Shown here piece by piece: positions 7,257 through 14,528 of a DNA stretch of 64,000 nucleotides. A program made the position numbers and the translations under genes. Every line of letters begins with the position of its first letter. Positions within the stretch are counted from its first letter, which is position 1. The DNA is taken from assembly GCA_945889005.1 (NCBI GenBank), contig CAMDBI010000003.1, positions 71,814-135,813 on the forward strand. Reading direction: 5' to 3'. The DNA comes from Bacteroides fragilis (GTDB lineage Bacteria > Bacteroidota > Bacteroidia > Bacteroidales > DTGW01). The notes under the pieces were generated by a model. The model searched no databases, had not been told where the DNA came from, and saw nothing but the letters and a program-made list of their open reading frames with translations.

Positions 7257-7313
7257 AAATAAAGCATTTCTTATTTTAAAAATGTAATAATTTACTTGTT
7301 TTTACTTTTTAGT

Positions 7314-9380
7314 ATGAAAAAACGATTAAAGATTCCTTTTGCTGAAGCCTTGTCAATGCTTCTAAAATATGCATGGTTAAGAGTAAAAGAGCAAATAAAA
7401 TCTGTAGCTTTTATTATATTATATTTAGTTGTTTTTCAAACATTAGTTTTAAATGTACCATTAGCTAATGCCTTAAGCACTAGTTTAGGAATTGCACTTG
7501 TTGTGTTTGGACTTGCTTTTTTTCTCGAAGGTCTTATACTAGGTTTAATGCCTCTAGGAGAGCGTGTTGGAGTTAAAATGCCACAACGAGTAGGAATTAC
7601 CGTAATTGCAATTTTTGGTCTTATTTTAGGATTTGGAGCCACTTTGGCTGAACCAGCAATTAGTGCTTTGCGAACTGCCGGATCTGCTATTACAGCATGG
7701 GATTCGCCTTTGTTATATATGATATTAGAGCCATATTCAAATTGGCTCATTCTTTCTGTTGGAATAGGTGTTGGTTTAGCTGTTGCATTAGGGATGTTTC
7801 GCTTTTATTATAATTGGTCTATTAAACCACTTATTTATATCATAATTCCTACTTTATTAGTCTTATCTATTGTTGCATACTATAATGTCAATTTAAGTAA
7901 AATAATTGGATTGGCTTGGGATTGTGGTGCGGTAACCACTGGGGCTGTAACCGTACCATTGGTTCTTGCTCTTGGTATAGGTGTTTCGCGTTCGTCAAAC
8001 AAAGGGCAAGGATCTAGTGGGGGGTTTGGAATTATTTTATTAGCTTCTGCTTTTCCAATATTAGCTGTTTTAGCGTTAGGAATTATTTTAAACACTTCAG
8101 CTCCGGCTCCTACCGATGAGAAAACTTTTTTTTCAATCGAAAACAGAGAAAATGCACTGCGTGTTTTTTCAAATGAAGAAAAACTTAAGCAACATGCGTT
8201 TACACATGGAAGTGAGGTTGGACGAGAAACTTTCTTTGGTAGTAAGCAAGCGTATAATTCAATTCTATTTTCGTTAAAGAATAATGCTGATTTACATCAA
8301 ACATATTTAGGATCAATAAGCTTATCGGATTGGCTTAAAATGAAGGCATCTGATAGTGAAAGAAAAGTAATTCAAGATAATGGAGATATTGCAAATAAAA
8401 AGACTGATAATTCTTTTGGTAAAGTGATAAAAGAAGAATCTATTGCCGGAATTAGGGCAGTTATACCTCTTTCATTATTGTTATTGATAGTATTGGTGCT
8501 ATTTCTAAAAGAAAAAATAAGATTTAAAGACGAAGTTGCCATTGGAATAGTTTTTACGCTGCTTGGGATGATACTACTAACTTCTGGTATTCGATTAGGT
8601 CTTGCTTCACTAGGTGGAGAAGTTGGAGGCGAATTGCCAAGAGCGTTTGCAAAAGATGATAAATTTATTGACCGAGTTATAATAAATAACTTCGACACTA
8701 CTCTGTTATTTCAAGGAATTTCTAAGGATGGATCAACCAAAACTTATTTTAATTTGATTGGCGAAAACGATCAATTAACTAAAGTAGAATTTAAATATGA
8801 CAATTTTAATAATAATACTAAACAATATGAACATATACTTACCCAAGCCCCTTTGTTTGGTAAGCAACTTACGATACTAGGCTTACTTTTGGTTTTAATC
8901 TTTGCCTTTGGAATGGGTTTTGGAGCAACTTTGGCCGAACCTGCTTTAAATGCACTTGGTTTGACTGTCGAAAATTTGACTGTAGGTACTATTAAGCAAA
9001 AACAAATTGTTAATATTGTTTCGTTGGGGGTTGGTATAGGTTGTACGCTTGGGTTTGCTCGTATTTTATTCGATTTACCTCTAATTTGGCTTATTGTAGT
9101 CCCGTATATTCTTTTAATTATTCTTTCAATTTTTAGTGAGGAAGAATATACTGCTATGGCATGGGATAGTGGGGGAGTTACTACAGGTCCTGTTACTGTA
9201 CCTCTTGTATTAGCTATGGGCTTGAGTATTGGCGGTGCTTTAAATATGGCCGATGGTTTTGGCGTTTTAGCTTTGGCTTCAGCATTTCCAATTATTACAG
9301 TGCTAGGATTCGGATTGTACAAAAATGCTAAGCAAAAACGTTCAATTGACAACAAACAAACAGAAGAAAAACATGGATAG
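7314..9380 (+). CDS. Fused tandem DUF1538 integral membrane protein
   Basis: There are two homologous halves. Each carries GATLAEPA(I/L)(S/N)AL and WD(C/S)G(A/G)VTTG(A/P)VTVPLVLA(L/M)G motifs typical of DUF1538, joined by a soluble linker of about 100 aa. ATG 7314 (MKKRLK) is preferred to TTG 7296. Confidence 0.75.
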   Translation: MKKRLKIPFAEALSMLLKYAWLRVKEQIKSVAFIILYLVVFQTLVLNVPLANALSTSLGIALVVFGLAFFLEGLILGLMPLGERVGVKMPQRVGITVIAIFGLILGFGATLAEPAISALRTAGSAITAWDSPLLYMILEPYSNWLILSVGIGVGLAVALGMFRFYYNWSIKPLIYIIIPTLLVLSIVAYYNVNLSKIIGLAWDCGAVTTGAVTVPLVLALGIGVSRSSNKGQGSSGGFGIILLASAFPILAVLALGIILNTSAPAPTDEKTFFSIENRENALRVFSNEEKLKQHAFTHGSEVGRETFFGSKQAYNSILFSLKNNADLHQTYLGSISLSDWLKMKASDSERKVIQDNGDIANKKTDNSFGKVIKEESIAGIRAVIPLSLLLLIVLVLFLKEKIRFKDEVAIGIVFTLLGMILLTSGIRLGLASLGGEVGGELPRAFAKDDKFIDRVIINNFDTTLLFQGISKDGSTKTYFNLIGENDQLTKVEFKYDNFNNNTKQYEHILTQAPLFGKQLTILGLLLVLIFAFGMGFGATLAEPALNALGLTVENLTVGTIKQKQIVNIVSLGVGIGCTLGFARILFDLPLIWLIVVPYILLIILSIFSEEEYTAMAWDSGGVTTGPVTVPLVLAMGLSIGGALNMADGFGVLALASAFPIITVLGFGLYKNAKQKRSIDNKQTEEKHG

Positions 9381-10578
9381 CGAATTGGTTAAACCCATTA
9401 AAGAAAAAGTTTTTTCTCCTTCTCGCACTGTTTGGAGAACACAAATGGGGAAAGGCGTTTACACTCCGCATAGGGTTAGTCGTATTACTTGTATTGTAAA
9501 TCAATTGTTAGCAAATAATGTTATTGATTTTTTGAAAAAAATAGAAGTTGTAGTTTACGATGAAACCGCTAGGGTTGTTAGAGAACAAATTAGGAAACGT
9601 AAATTTGGTTTGCCTGGCGAAATTAATACCCTCGAAAGTACTTCAGTTAGAATTTTCAGATTCTCTATTCCAAGAGAAAACGCAGCATTAATTACAAAAA
9701 TATTGATAGATATTGCTGAATTACACATACCTGGTAGAGGTTCAATTTTTTCGCAGGAATTAATGGAATTCTCAAATGAACCTCCAAAATTTAATGCCAG
9801 CTTTTTAAGCACCTATTCGTCTGTCAATTACAATTATAACTTGTTAAATAATTTGTCGTATGTTATTTGTGTGCTTTCAGACCCGGGAAGTGGTGAACAA
9901 ATTGCAAAAATTGCACTCGAATTGGGAATTTGTGTTCCATTAATAACATTTGGCACTGGAAACGATATTAGAGATCAGTTAGGTTTGATTCGAATAACAA
10001 TTCCGGCAGAAAAAGAAATTGTTCATTTAGTTATGCCCGAGCAAGATTCCGATAGTATTATTAAACTATTGGTCGAGCACGGTAGACTCGACAAACCCGG
10101 GAAAGGTTTTATTTATCAAACGCCTGTTTCTATCGGTATGATTGATACCAGAATGAAAATTGGAAAACAAAAATATGCAGCAAGTATGGAACAAATTATT
10201 GCAGCCATAGACCAATTAAAATCCGATACAACATGGCGTAAACGTTTAGATGCGAACTCAGATAATTCGAAAATTGGAAAATCAATGATGCCACAAGACA
10301 ATTGCGAAGTTTCAATTATATCCGATGAAGATAGGATTGACGTTTTGAGAGAAACTTGTTTAGAGGTAGGAGCATCGGGAGCAATAACTTCAAAAGTAAT
10401 TCCCATTTCTTGTATTGACGGTGCACATACAACCATGATAAGAAGTGCTATTAGTGTACCTGCTCAAATTACCGATATAGTGGTCGACAAGTTGCTGAAT
10501 GCCAGTACTATAAAAACCGAAAACGTGGATCGAATTCAAGTTCTCGACTCTCCCGCTGCTTATGTTCGATCGTTATAA
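9373..10578 (+). CDS. Multi-domain P-II-like (GlnB-fold) protein, probable partner of the DUF1538 protein
   Basis: Three consecutive segments of about 100-120 aa have a beta-alpha-beta...beta-alpha-beta pattern. The first two end in GRGSIFSQEL and GKGFIYQTPV, which resemble the P-II GDGKIFV motif. ATG 9373 overlaps the upstream stop (ATGGATAG). Confidence 0.55.
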   Translation: MDSELVKPIKEKVFSPSRTVWRTQMGKGVYTPHRVSRITCIVNQLLANNVIDFLKKIEVVVYDETARVVREQIRKRKFGLPGEINTLESTSVRIFRFSIPRENAALITKILIDIAELHIPGRGSIFSQELMEFSNEPPKFNASFLSTYSSVNYNYNLLNNLSYVICVLSDPGSGEQIAKIALELGICVPLITFGTGNDIRDQLGLIRITIPAEKEIVHLVMPEQDSDSIIKLLVEHGRLDKPGKGFIYQTPVSIGMIDTRMKIGKQKYAASMEQIIAAIDQLKSDTTWRKRLDANSDNSKIGKSMMPQDNCEVSIISDEDRIDVLRETCLEVGASGAITSKVIPISCIDGAHTTMIRSAISVPAQITDIVVDKLLNASTIKTENVDRIQVLDSPAAYVRSL

Positions 10579-10975: not shown

Positions 10976-11349
10976 ATAATTATTTTTGGTAAGAACTTAA
11001 ATCGGGTAGACAGATTCATGAAATTAAGAAAAATCTGACACATTCTGAGCTTTTCATTCAGAATCTGACAGCTTATTTCAGAACTCAATGCCGTGAAGGA
11101 CGAATTTAGAGAGTATTTGCCTAAAGTCAATATGCCTGTAAAGAAATCGAATAAAAATTGAGGTAGCGATAATAAGAATAATAACCAAAATATAGTAGGT
11201 CAGATACTTAATGGCAATTTGTTTTATGAGATTTAAATAGAATATCACCAAATAATATATATAAATAATTTAATTACATGTATTTATATATAATTTTATA
11301 AATAATATATAAAAAAGAATTTTAATTTTTATTTAATCTAAATAGTTTA

Positions 11350-11357
11350 TAAATTTG
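11350..11357 (+). promoter_or_regulatory. Candidate -7 box (TAAATTTG) for the cys leader / cysK transcript
   Basis: Matches TAnnTTTG, 18 nt upstream of the leader ATG. Confidence 0.4.
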
Positions 11358-11374
11358 TAAAAAACAAAATCACG

Positions 11375-11458
11375 ATGACTTTAAATTTGAACATATCATG
11401 CTGCTGTTGTTGTAATGTGAGCCACAAAAATGGAAGCAATGATTGTGTGAAAATGTAA
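11375..11458 (+). CDS. Cys-rich leader peptide (27 aa) upstream of cysK
   Basis: MTLNLNISCCCCCNVSHKNGSNDCVKM. Five consecutive Cys codons (TGC TGC TGT TGT TGT) lie at 11399-11413. Confidence 0.6.
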   Translation: MTLNLNISCCCCCNVSHKNGSNDCVKM

Positions 11459-11485
11459 TATTTTTTACCCACTCAATATAATCGA

Positions 11486-11513
11486 GCCCTTCCATAAGAA
11501 GGGCTTTTTTTTT
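11486..11513 (+). terminator. Intrinsic terminator / attenuator between the leader peptide and cysK
   Basis: GCCCTTC-CATAA-GAAGGGC followed by T9, 45 nt upstream of the cysK ATG. Confidence 0.7.
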
Positions 11514-11558
11514 ACCAAAAAAGAAAAAAAATAAATATAAATTCAAAAATTAAGCAAT

Positions 11559-12473
11559 ATGAAAGTAAACAACATTCTCCAAACCATCGGAAATACACCG
11601 CATGTAAAGATCAACAAACTCTATTCGTCCGATTATGAAGTATGGGTTAAATTGGAAAAAGCCAATCCTGGTTCAAGTATCAAAGACCGTATAGCCCTTT
11701 CGATGGTCGAAGATGCCGAAAAGAAAGGAATATTGAAACCCGGAAGTGTCATTATAGAGCCAACCTCGGGCAATACAGGTATAGGATTAGCCATGGTAGC
11801 AGCCGTTAAAGGCTATAAGCTTATATTGGTTATGCCCGAGTCGATGAGTATTGAACGTCGCCGATTGATGTCGATCTATGGTGCACAATTTGAACTTACT
11901 CCTCGCGAAAAAGGTATGAAAGGTGCCATTGAAAAAGCAAACGAATTGGCACAAGCTACTACAAACTCTTGGATTCCGCAGCAGTTCAATAACGAAGCAA
12001 ATATTGCTATACACAAAACAACAACAGCACAAGAAATAATAAAGGACTTCCCCGAAGGTTTAGATTATTTAATAACCGGTGTTGGAACTGGTGGGCACAT
12101 AACAGGAGTAGGTGAGGTATTGAAAGAAAAATGGCCAAATCTAAAGGTTTTTGCAGTAGAACCTGCTTTGTCGCCTGTTATTAGTGGTGGACAACCCGGC
12201 CCACACCCTATTCAAGGTATTGGTGCTGGTTTTGTACCCAACAACCTACACACAGCGGTTCTCGATGGAGTTATTCAAATTAGTAAAGAAGAAGCATTTG
12301 AGTATGCCAATCGTATAGCGCGCGAAGAAGGTATTTTGGTTGGTATTTCTACCGGTGCTTCGTTGGCTGCAGTAGCAAAGAAATTGACCGAAATCCCAAA
12401 AGGTAGTCGTGTGCTCACTTTCAACTACGACACCGGCGAACGTTATTTAAGCATCGAAGGTTTGTTTGCTTAG
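11559..12473 (+). CDS. cysK: Cysteine synthase A (O-acetylserine sulfhydrylase)
   Basis: 304 aa. PLP-enzyme motifs [24 protein letters not shown] and [10 protein letters not shown]. Confidence 0.93.
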
Positions 12474-12482
12474 TTTTTTTAA

Positions 12483-14528
12483 TTAGAACTCAACCGTCAG
12501 TCTGAAAACTATGTCGGACTGGCGGTTGCCTTTTATCTGGTTGAGACCTTCGCCAATAATATTTCTGTCAGCATATTGAGTAAGGCTATATCGAATGCCT
12601 AGCCCAATGTTTTTGCTCATGTTGGCTTTTGCCATTATATAAGTTCTAATTCCCTTGCCCGATAATGCCGGAAAAGAAAATGAATTTGAAATATTGTTTT
12701 CAAACGAGTAAATGGCTGAAAGAAAATCGTCGGTATCGAAAATTGAATAACGTGCTTCTAATTTAAGTTTATTATTAAGTGTGCCAACTGCCACATCATG
12801 TGCAATAAAAAAGCCTTTAGATTGTTCCGAATCGGAGCGATATAAGCTTGTTTCTATAATGTTTTTCATACAAATAAAATTTGATACTTTATATTGTAAC
12901 CCAAGTCGGTATTTTGTATTACTTACTTCTTGAATTGAATACATAGTGCCACTATTGCTTTGGTTTCGTTCTTTTGTTTTTGTTTTGAATCTGAGATACA
13001 AACCCAATGAACTGTTTACTTGGTAATCGGTTTGTACAAAATACTCGTGTCCACGCGATGGGCTGTTGACCCTGTATTTTATCCAAGGAAACATAAATAA
13101 GTCGCTGTATGCCTTTATTGAAAGTTTGCTGATGGGTGTATACTCAATTCCCGAAAACACCCCAAATTCATTCGTAGCAGTACTGTTTTCTGCAAAAGGC
13201 CTATTGTAGCGACTGTAATATTGGGGATTGAAATATCGCGATTGAAGCGCCAATTTTAAATTGTCGACAATGTCTATAGCCATATTGACGGTCGAAGCAA
13301 GCCCTCCCTGTTGCGAAAATGCTTGTTCACCCGACAAAAGAAACGATCGATATATAAACCGGCAATAAACACCTGTTGCAGAAGATTTTTGTCCTCTAAA
13401 TACTAAATTATTATAAGCATCGTCCGATTTCTGAAAATTTTGACTAAAAATACTGAGTGCACCAGTATTGCCAAAGGTGAAATTTTTTATTTTACCTGTA
13501 ATGTTATATCCGCTTGTAAATTCGTCAATTGAGCCTTTGTTGCTGAGACTCGACAGTGTATTGTGAATGCCAGAGACATTCAAAGAGTTGAAATAGCTGT
13601 CGTTAGTTGTACTGTCTAATTTGAGATTTGCATCCAATGCTTTATATGAGATGAATAAAGAAAAAGAAAATTCTTTATGAAAAGTTGTAATAGCCAATCC
13701 TCTTAAATAATTGTTTTCGGAACTTGATGTATACTGGTTTATGCCCTGATTCACTTTCGAAACAGAGCCAATAATCGACGATTTTCCCATCGAAAAGCCA
13801 TTCCACACAACAAGACCCTCTCCAAAATTTGCCATAAAATCGCCCAAAACTATTTTTTTAAACATTTTAAATTGATTGACTGCAACAAAACCACTCAAGA
13901 ATTCAAGATTATTGTTTGAAAGAAACTTTTCGCCCGCATCTTTTTCGAATGTTAAACCGGCTTCAATCTTATCGCGCCGATTAAATCTATATTTTGCGAG
14001 ATATTTCAATGGACTACCAATAAAACCCATATCGGTAGTGTCGTATATAGATTTGAATCCTTCTTTTGCTTCAATATTCGATACGGTTAAAAATAAAAGT
14101 TTAATTTTGCCTTTATTATATAGGTTCTTTATTTGTATGGTGTCAAAAAAATCGACAGGAGCAACAAAAAAGTAGGCTTCAATTTTTTGGGCAAGTTCTA
14201 GATTTATGCTTTTTACCGAGGCAAGTTCAAAAATACTTTTAAATTCATGGTTTTTTGTCCGATAATCGATTATGTCTTGGATTTGAATGGGCGACAAGAT
14301 GTACAGTCGCTCAAAATCTTCTCTCGAAGCGGTATTTAGATTAAAAGGCGAAGATGCTATTGATTCTAATGTTTCGTATAGTTCAGAGGCATTATCTTCT
14401 GTATTTTCGAGTATTTCATCGTTTTGAAGCAATGTTTCTGTACTTTCTTCCAAAATAGATATATTTTGAGCAAAACATTTGAAAATGCTAATATTTATTA
14501 ATAAGAAAAAAATAAAAAAATTTTTCAA
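12483..14528 (-). CDS. Helix-hairpin-helix (ComEA-like) domain protein with a large C-terminal beta-rich/barrel-like region
   Basis: 681 aa with a signal peptide. The N-terminal HhH-like segment is FNLNTASREDFERLYILSPIQIQDIIDYR. The rest is beta-strand-rich and ends in an aromatic residue (..LTVEF). Confidence 0.55.
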   Translation of the reverse strand: MKNFFIFFLLINISIFKCFAQNISILEESTETLLQNDEILENTEDNASELYETLESIASSPFNLNTASREDFERLYILSPIQIQDIIDYRTKNHEFKSIFELASVKSINLELAQKIEAYFFVAPVDFFDTIQIKNLYNKGKIKLLFLTVSNIEAKEGFKSIYDTTDMGFIGSPLKYLAKYRFNRRDKIEAGLTFEKDAGEKFLSNNNLEFLSGFVAVNQFKMFKKIVLGDFMANFGEGLVVWNGFSMGKSSIIGSVSKVNQGINQYTSSSENNYLRGLAITTFHKEFSFSLFISYKALDANLKLDSTTNDSYFNSLNVSGIHNTLSSLSNKGSIDEFTSGYNITGKIKNFTFGNTGALSIFSQNFQKSDDAYNNLVFRGQKSSATGVYCRFIYRSFLLSGEQAFSQQGGLASTVNMAIDIVDNLKLALQSRYFNPQYYSRYNRPFAENSTATNEFGVFSGIEYTPISKLSIKAYSDLFMFPWIKYRVNSPSRGHEYFVQTDYQVNSSLGLYLRFKTKTKERNQSNSGTMYSIQEVSNTKYRLGLQYKVSNFICMKNIIETSLYRSDSEQSKGFFIAHDVAVGTLNNKLKLEARYSIFDTDDFLSAIYSFENNISNSFSFPALSGKGIRTYIMAKANMSKNIGLGIRYSLTQYADRNIIGEGLNQIKGNRQSDIVFRLTVEF

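Follow-up and report, generated by a model that had tools for sequence, protein, structure and literature searches.

A cysteine-codon leader in front of cysK

The 64-kb window analyzed here (the whole stretch of 64,000 nucleotides from the Bacteroides fragilis contig CAMDBI010000003.1; unlabeled positions are those of the window) contains a gene for cysteine synthase A, cysK, which is preceded by a short upstream open reading frame (uORF) rich in Cys codons and by an intrinsic terminator (Table 1). An initial annotation of this region had proposed that these elements form an attenuator that responds to cysteine. The parts on which it relied are all in place: the coordinates of the 27-codon uORF, with six Cys codons and an uninterrupted run of five, were verified, the terminator and its T-run were picked up by a terminator scan, the complementarity between ATGGAAG and CTTCCAT is exact, and the -7 box is present where it had been placed. 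The downstream gene was likewise named correctly, its product matching the NCBIfam equivalog TIGR01139 with 416 bits (cutoff 351) as well as the Pfam family PALP.

Table 1. Features of the leader region and of cysK, in window positions
Feature	Position	Strand	Basis
-7 promoter box (Bacteroidota-type, TAnnTTTG), TAAATTTG	11350-11357	+	consensus match, predicted
Leader uORF, 27 codons + TAA, 6 Cys, MTLNLNISCCCCCNVSHKNGSNDCVKM	11375-11458	+	read from sequence
Cys run TGC TGC TGT TGT TGT, proposed ribosome stall site	11399-11413	+	read from sequence
Region 2, ATGGAAG, putative antiterminator 5' strand, inside uORF	11430-11436	+	complement of 11489-11495
Middle hairpin, holds uORF stop codon, enclosed by the predicted 2:3 helix	11441-11483	+	minimum free energy (MFE) and constrained folds
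Intrinsic terminator with stem 11484-11492 / 11498-11506, CAUAA loop and U-tract up to 11513	11484-11513	+	terminator scan
Region 3, CTTCCAT, part of terminator 5' arm	11489-11495	+	exact complement of ATGGAAG
A-rich spacer, 45 nt, up to cysK start	11514-11558	+	without promoter box
cysK (cysteine synthase A, O-acetylserine sulfhydrylase), 304 aa, ATG at 11559	11559-12473	+	TIGR01139, Pfam PALP

The terminator has the sequence GAGCCCTTC-CATAA-GAAGGGCTT (11484-11506), with nine pairs, five of them G-C, and a hairpin energy of -13.6 kcal/mol. It lies 27 nt past the stop codon of the uORF and ends 45 nt short of the ATG of cysK, which is not preceded by any sequence resembling a Shine-Dalgarno (SD) site. 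Region 2 starts 16 nt past the last Cys codon. At the other end of the leader, the -7 box and the uORF start are separated by 17 nt, which suggests a short 5' leader, predicted to comprise about 10 nt. A very AT-rich stretch with repeated TATATAAATAAT-like units (11180-11350) is found immediately 5' of the promoter box and may represent a region that is UP-like or regulatory; the gene upstream of the leader encodes a protein with a type IX secretion system (T9SS) sorting domain and ends at 11038.

Within the window, this arrangement is singular. A series of five Cys codons (TGYx5) occurs once in the 64 kb and in none of 100 dinucleotide shuffles, and a scan of both strands for an ATG-initiated uORF with at least three Cys codons, followed by a terminator, returned this one instance.

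Recurrence of the layout before cysteine and sulfur genes

A check proposed in the initial annotation, a search for Cys-run uORFs and terminators upstream of cysK and cysE orthologs, revealed that the layout recurs in many lineages. We collected 160 cysK loci from genomes and metagenomes and scanned them as whole loci on both strands (1.12 Mb in total) for a composite made up of an ATG-initiated uORF with three or more Cys codons in succession, a stop codon at most 25 codons from the run and an intrinsic terminator beginning at most 70 nt after this stop. On the sense strand, 21 composites precede cysK, a cysE-cysK pair or an O-acetylhomoserine (OAH)-sulfhydrylase-like gene. Nine of them are located directly 5' of cysK, and twelve lie about 900 nt upstream of it, where they precede the cysE gene of cysE-cysK operons, an OAH-sulfhydrylase-like gene or a small gene that is then followed by cysK; only one composite was detected at any other place. 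Similarly, a second set of 63 loci, seeded with the CysK protein of Draconibacterium, yielded 17 composites, all of them (17/17) on the sense strand, and relaxed versions of the leader (CC, CYCC, CMCC) were found in further Prolixibacteraceae. The bare run is a much poorer guide. Three consecutive TGY codons upstream of cysK were observed 12 times, compared with an expectation of 4.7 (2.5-fold, P=0.0036), and GC-rich genomes are rich in such runs in other reading frames; this weak enrichment and the GC-rich noise make the composite criterion necessary. The exact 15-nt Cys run of the window was found in 18 loci, of which 16 are coding repeats in GC-rich genomes and two are genuine: one precedes cysE (L231), the other an OAH-sulfhydrylase-like gene in Chitinophagales (L354), where the leader MIKSFQIIMCCCCCQNKSEGF is also followed by a terminator.

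Two further loci deserve mention as observations in their own right. The GC-rich genome of Pyxidicoccus fallax (Myxococcota) carries a uORF, MTLPLTTTGAQCCCCCRVACACCLAGPEHWESA, 5' of cysK, which is followed by a GC-rich hairpin without a canonical U-run (L078:1290-1392); it could constitute an independent or Rho-type version of the leader outside the Fibrobacterota-Chlorobiota-Bacteroidota (FCB) group. At another locus, the interval between the cysE and cysK genes contains a uORF with a Cys run, MKQHILSGSPFCLCCCCGLPSPII, and no terminator is obvious 3' of this uORF (L011:1369-1443).

The same association emerged from a scan that names neither a gene nor the antiterminator. The pattern TGTTGYTGY N{50,80} CCTTCC N{8,20} GCTTTTTT, which the window satisfies, was searched for in 185,579 species genomes and found at no fewer than 80 loci. 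Among the 81 matches listed, 35 contain a proper ATG-initiated uORF. In 13 of these 35, the next gene encodes a CysK protein with 70-77% identity, in eight a CysE protein and in three an OAH-sulfhydrylase-like enzyme. A more distant CysK-like PALP enzyme follows in four of the matches listed, which correspond to three genes, including one with two leaders in tandem before it. Also among the matches listed, a sulfite reductase, a RimK-like ATP-grasp protein, a TonB-dependent receptor and an EamA transporter follow once each, one match is probably false, and in three cases no open reading frame was found, while five further matches have leaders with GTG or TTG start codons before CysE or ATP-grasp genes. 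The listed matches without a uORF fall in unrelated taxa and next to unrelated genes, and together with the identity of the genes behind the uORFs, this argues that the architecture is specific to genes of cysteine and sulfur assimilation. In total, at least 75 distinct versions of the layout were obtained, comprising a uORF with two to six Cys codons, a terminator, a short spacer and a gene of cysteine or sulfur metabolism, with almost no off-target occurrences. Its carriers are Bacteroidota (Prolixibacteraceae, metagenome-assembled genomes [MAGs] of Bacteroidales, Chitinophagales/Saprospiraceae and Flavobacteriales) and Ignavibacteriota, and the matches listed also include single ones in Balneolales and "Eisenbacteria" MAGs.

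The window leader aligns end to end with leaders of the Prolixibacteraceae type, from the ATG through the Cys run, the GGAAG box and the ATTATA box to the terminator. This alignable leader, the TAnnTTTG box and the T9SS sorting domain encoded by the neighboring gene point to a source within Bacteroidota, close to Bacteroidales/Marinilabiliales. A covariance model, R1, based on 22 leaders other than that of the window, matches positions 11375-11515 (+) over model positions 1-138 with 46.7 bits (E=2.6e-7), and the runner-up in the 64 kb is a partial match of 20 bits to a generic terminator. R1 also recovers leaders linked to cysE in Chitinophagales, a leader in an Ignavibacteriales MAG and "CYC" variants in Flavobacteriaceae that the strict scan had missed. 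No family in Rfam 15 came near its gathering score at a permissive threshold, the values being 26 vs 70 bits for RprA and 20 vs 55 bits for Phe_leader, with both of these sub-threshold alignments mainly covering the terminator. On sequence grounds, the window element is thus a member of a Cys-leader family of Bacteroidota and Ignavibacteriota. The idea that the Cys run and the terminator came to lie side by side by accident, with the terminator perhaps serving the upstream T9SS-tail gene, can draw on the fact that the interval from 11038 to 11484 has no further predicted terminator. It is effectively refuted by the comparative data, given that five consecutive Cys codons never arose in the shuffles, that R1 matches the window element and that the composite is found almost exclusively before cys genes, at hundreds of loci with different upstream neighbors; its probability is practically nil.

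The geometry of the family points to a leader that is read by ribosomes. In 74 distinct leaders, the peptide has a median length of 25 aa, and its longest Cys run comprises three codons in 46 cases, four in 15, five in six, six in three and two in four. The start codon lies 8-30 codons upstream of the run, which is always in frame, and the stop codon follows it after a median of 11 codons (interquartile range 10-12; 14 in the window). Outside of the run, the peptide sequence is not conserved between lineages, and within it, T/C exchanges are the only variation at third codon positions in strict members. UG-rich repeats can be protein-binding sites. It is conceivable, then, that the reading frame is incidental and that the UGY repeat and the purine box form an RNA that works independently of translation, either by binding a protein or small molecule or as a terminated small RNA, the more so as translation of the uORF is itself something we infer. 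In addition, terminated leaders can act in trans, as reported for rnTrpL of Sinorhizobium (bioRxiv 10.1101/606483). Such a translation-independent element nonetheless appears quite improbable in view of the invariable frame, the constrained distances to start and stop and the T/C-restricted third positions. Moreover, matches outside of cys loci lack a uORF, there is no matching Rfam family, and a role in trans would add to attenuation rather than replace it.

The surroundings of the leaders also speak to the way in which the downstream genes are expressed. In 13 of 68 instances, the uORF start is preceded by an exact TAnnTTTG box whose end lies 4-20 nt away, as opposed to about one or two boxes per 10-nt bin elsewhere. 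At four loci (L247, L287, L300 and L303), the gap between the box and the ATG is just 4 nt, which means that the mRNA is possibly leaderless or nearly so; judging by this spacing, these leader mRNAs may resemble the polycysteine small open reading frames (sORFs) of mycobacteria. Downstream of the terminator, the U-tract is separated from the next ATG by a median of 28 nt; 52 of 71 spacers measure no more than 45 nt, and a single spacer of the 71 contains a TAnnTTTG box. In the window, no such box is found between 11459 and 11558. With spacers that are too short and devoid of a promoter box, the genes behind them can be expressed only by read-through, which means that the terminator must be conditional. 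The same figures bear on the notion that the uORF is an independent gene for a small Cys-rich peptide with a terminator of its own and that cysK is transcribed from a separate promoter. Promoter box, open reading frame and terminator would indeed add up to a complete small transcription unit, whereas the lack of peptide conservation outside of the Cys run, the short spacers without promoter box (median 28 nt, 45 nt here) and the tight link to genes of the cysteine pathway leave this possibility with a very slim chance.

Terminator, antiterminator and the proposed switch

Both halves of the presumed switch can be followed across the family. In a MAFFT alignment of 23 sequences (A1), the terminator stem is 94.8% paired, with seven of its 11 pairs changing on both sides; none of 500 shuffles matched this result, and slid registers of the stem collapse. 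In nearly every leader, a purine box that follows soon after the Cys run complements the terminator 5' arm of the same leader, as illustrated by the pairs AUGGAAG/CUUCCAU in the window, CAGGAAAGU/GCUUUCCUG in L161 and UGGGAAGG/CCUUCCCA in L180, and by 14 pairs in L132. We assessed this relationship with a register-free test, in which the duplex energy of the segment following the Cys run was calculated with its own or with a permuted terminator arm. The own arm gave -14.2 kcal/mol and permuted arms -11.0 +/- 0.4 kcal/mol for 40 non-identical instances (0/10,000), with corresponding values of -14.8 and -12.8 +/- 0.4 kcal/mol in the closest group (0/10,000); since related sequences inflate the test, these permutation figures are not to be taken as probabilities. 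With the last Cys codon occupied by a ribosome and the terminator 3' arm withheld, the helix between regions 2 and 3 (2:3 helix) was part of the MFE structure of the nascent RNA in all instances (18/18).

Folding of the window leader, another check suggested at the outset, indeed yields alternative terminator and antiterminator states. The full leader is near-isoenergetic between the two (-31.6 kcal/mol for the terminator and -30.4 kcal/mol for the antiterminator form). With a ribosome on the third Cys codon and RNA made up to 11497, the arm sequence CUUC is paired with a probability of 0.83-1.0, consistent with the earlier proposal that a stall on the Cys codons leaves the alternative pairing free to form; with a ribosome that decodes codon 20 and thereby covers region 2, this probability drops to about 0.

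The element thus has the makings of an attenuator of the trp/his/leu/thr type applied to cysteine, as originally envisaged. Its recurrence, the covarying terminator, the match between region 2 and its own terminator arm, the R1 match and the lack of room for a promoter in the spacer all point in this direction. We therefore regard it as probable, at roughly 0.8, that a ribosome-mediated attenuator with a leader peptide senses the supply of charged tRNA-Cys in this region and thereby controls transcription of cysK. Translation of the uORF, stalling of the ribosome on the run, coupling of transcription and translation and the response to cysteine are the steps that we infer.

Under this model, translation of the 27-codon leader would begin as soon as transcription has started just 3' of the TAAATTTG box. 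At low levels of Cys-tRNA, the ribosome would stall on the five Cys codons while RNA polymerase moves ahead, so that ATGGAAG, the middle hairpin and CTTCCAT would emerge as naked RNA. The middle hairpin would bring regions 2 and 3 together, and the 2:3 helix would form before the 3' arm of the terminator is made, resulting in read-through into cysK. With abundant Cys-tRNA, the ribosome would instead trail the polymerase through codons 15-27, cover region 2 and melt the middle hairpin; this hairpin would also be melted by a ribosome that reaches the stop codon. The terminator hairpin and its U-tract could then form, ending transcription 45 nt before cysK.

Several observations weigh against this interpretation. 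In the window, the 2:3 pairing comprises 7 bp (-8.3 kcal/mol, partner 11429-11437; RNAduplex) and is weaker than the terminator (-13.6 kcal/mol). Taken by itself, it is also marginal (z=-2.1, equaled by 22 of 500 shuffles), so that its support is drawn from the family. There, column-wise counting in alignment A1 gives 69.6% pairing between regions 2 and 3, compared with 70.1% in shuffles, and is thus no better than these, with a register that slips by about 1 nt between sequences and with little variation in both strands; the antiterminator has the register-free test, inflated by related sequences, as its only backing. In truncated folds, and in most family members, the 2:3 helix wins even with region 1 free, and naked RNA of the window folds into the antiterminator as well. 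With the uORF stop codon in the A site, a ribosome would cover approximately positions 11441-11469 and hence not region 2, which disagrees with the initial annotation, according to which region 2 would be covered once translation proceeds to the stop. Furthermore, CysK searches of the genome and metagenome collections yielded no relative with more than 84% identity, and the exact CysK protein matched only the source assembly. Finally, the model assumes a coupling of transcription and translation in Bacteroidota.

If naked RNA adopts the antiterminator fold, the off state depends wholly on the position and timing of the ribosome. It would have to arise in one of three ways: by a ribosome in transit over codons 15-24, by melting of the middle hairpin, or by a hairpin between the Cys codons and region 2 (11399-11438). 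The full-length MFE structure of the window pairs the Cys codons (11399-11413) with positions 11424-11438. A general 1:2 anti-antiterminator, which was considered for the family as a whole, found no support, as naked RNA folds into the 2:3 form in most members.

These difficulties lend some weight to the alternative that the uORF responds to cysteine without any 2:3 antiterminator, through a stalled ribosome that alters Rho access, mRNA stability or cysK translation or that modulates a leaky terminator in another manner. The 2:3 helix of the window is weak and, taken alone, marginal, column-wise covariation is no better than in shuffles, and the Cys-codon attenuators that have been studied experimentally, those of mycobacteria, act on translation rather than on termination (Canestrari et al., 2020; bioRxiv 10.1101/834739). 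We nevertheless consider such a route unlikely. Every instance has a strong intrinsic terminator that covaries, region 2 matches its own terminator arm at a constrained distance past the Cys run, and the Bacteroidota start sites in question have no SD sequence that could be sequestered.

Relation to known leaders and the wider regulon

Classical leader-peptide attenuators include trpL, hisL, leuL, thrL, pheL and ivbL/ilvL, with the Rfam families Trp_leader, His_leader, Leu_leader, Thr_leader and Phe_leader. Like them, the element described here has a 5' uORF whose tandem codons specify the amino acid that the downstream genes produce, an intrinsic terminator immediately ahead of the first structural gene and an alternative helix on the terminator 5' arm, such that a stalled ribosome would favor the antiterminator. 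It differs from them in the amino acid, cysteine, in its occurrence in Bacteroidota and Ignavibacteriota, in having no Rfam leader match, in lacking an evident general 1:2 "protector" hairpin and in its SD-independent initiation. As the naked Cys leader is predicted to adopt the antiterminator fold, an untranslated leader would read through, instead of super-attenuating as leaders of the trp type do.

Closer in their codon content are leaders of actinobacteria and alphaproteobacteria. The initial annotation was not aware of any Cys-codon leader controlling cysK, a view that proved too strong, because Cys-codon leaders have been described in mycobacteria and, for cysS, in Rhodobacterales. Seliverstov et al., 2005 (PMC1262725) predicted leaders of this kind in front of cys operons in actinobacteria and detected no conserved terminator hairpins before those of Mycobacterium. 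Polycysteine leaderless sORFs of mycobacteria were later shown experimentally to respond to cysteine; at the Ms5788 locus, control is translational, with the stalled ribosome opening a duplex that hides a downstream SD site (Canestrari et al., 2020). These sORFs and the family described here have in common at least two to three Cys codons in a uORF before operons of cysteine metabolism and the presence of several such loci per genome (a "ribulon"). Unlike the mycobacterial systems, which are translational and leaderless, the element in the window has a covarying intrinsic terminator, no SD site and about 17 nt between promoter box and AUG, and the two show no sequence relationship. The uORFC-8-2 motif, a predicted attenuator of cysS that is found in Rhodobacterales (Brewer et al., 2021; PMC8632094), also combines tandem Cys codons in a uORF with a subsequent terminator stem and U-run. 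It differs in that it precedes the gene for cysteinyl-tRNA synthetase rather than cysK, has a pair of Cys codons, at positions 14-15, that falls within the first stem and is restricted to one alphaproteobacterial order.

A literature search of incomplete coverage returned no Cys leader with a terminator before cysK or cysE in Bacteroidota or Ignavibacteriota, nor is such a Cys leader described in the attenuator survey of Naville & Gautheret or in transcriptome papers on Flavobacterium and Bacteroides. The family in Bacteroidota and their relatives therefore appears to have remained undescribed so far. We lean somewhat towards the view that it represents a phylum-wide RNA family that defines a ribosome-read regulon, a "Cys ribulon", of cysK, cysE-cysK, OAH-sulfhydrylase-like, sulfite reductase and ATP-grasp genes, with some leaders in tandem and some of mixed Met/Cys type. 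To our knowledge, the control of cysteine synthesis is poorly charted in Bacteroidota and their relatives, and ribosome-polymerase coupling has hardly been examined in this phylum. The element would offer a way to control cysteine synthesis without a regulatory protein across many families and extend classical attenuation to cysteine biosynthesis, for which only the mycobacterial translational variant and the predicted cysS leader were previously at hand. If true, the Cys ribulon would provide direct evidence of regulatory transcription-translation coupling in a phylum that initiates translation without SD pairing. Model R1 can be used as a covariance-model seed for annotation, the list of co-regulated genes links an uncharacterized ATP-grasp enzyme to cysteine, and the carriers of the family include cultivable species such as Draconibacterium sediminis and D. 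mangrovi, Maribellus sediminis and M. mangrovi, and Mariniphaga sediminis.

Several individual loci illustrate the range of the family. Tandem units of leader and terminator, which are reminiscent of tandem riboswitches, precede a gene for a CysK-like PALP enzyme in a Flavobacteriales MAG (L286:2320-2408 and 2463-2574) and cysE at another locus (L132:336-407 and 489-590). MAGs of Saprospiraceae and Chitinophagaceae encode, directly behind a Cys leader with a double run such as CTCCCFCCC, a protein of roughly 320 aa whose only Pfam match is a weak one to RimK-like ATP-grasp (L226:661-1614, L253:2507-3460, L238:6660-7691(-) and L299:3647-4606(-)), a position that suggests an uncharacterized cysteine-related ligase. 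A Cys leader and terminator are also found before genes for a sulfite reductase (NIR_SIR domains) and a TonB-dependent receptor (Ignavibacteriaceae MAG) (L225:1353-3503(-) and L269:201-2966(-)); along with the leaders of OAH-sulfhydrylase-like genes, they indicate that the regulon is wider than cysK and cysE. In a number of leaders, to which that of the window does not belong, Met codons cluster beside the Cys run, as in NMMMCCC of Draconibacterium and MCCCCMMMH before OAH-sulfhydrylase-like genes (L038:1326-1400, L232:1209-1320, L289:2655-2766, L071:2-94 and others). Met accounts for 12.9% of the four codons on each side of the run and for 3.8% elsewhere in the leaders, a comparison that ignores relatedness, and mixed leaders of this kind may sense both sulfur amino acids.

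Further upstream in the window, a 417-aa open reading frame without a Pfam match (9325-10578) overlaps the end of the preceding gene, which encodes a membrane protein with a duplicated DUF1538 domain (7296-9380). Downstream of cysK, a strong hairpin of 15 pairs (12491-12528), apparently the cysK terminator, lies within the last codons of a convergent gene on the minus strand (12483-14528) that encodes a 681-aa protein with an HHH_3 domain. As judged from its position, this hairpin would thus serve as the terminator of cysK and, at the same time, code for the C-terminus of the convergent gene product.

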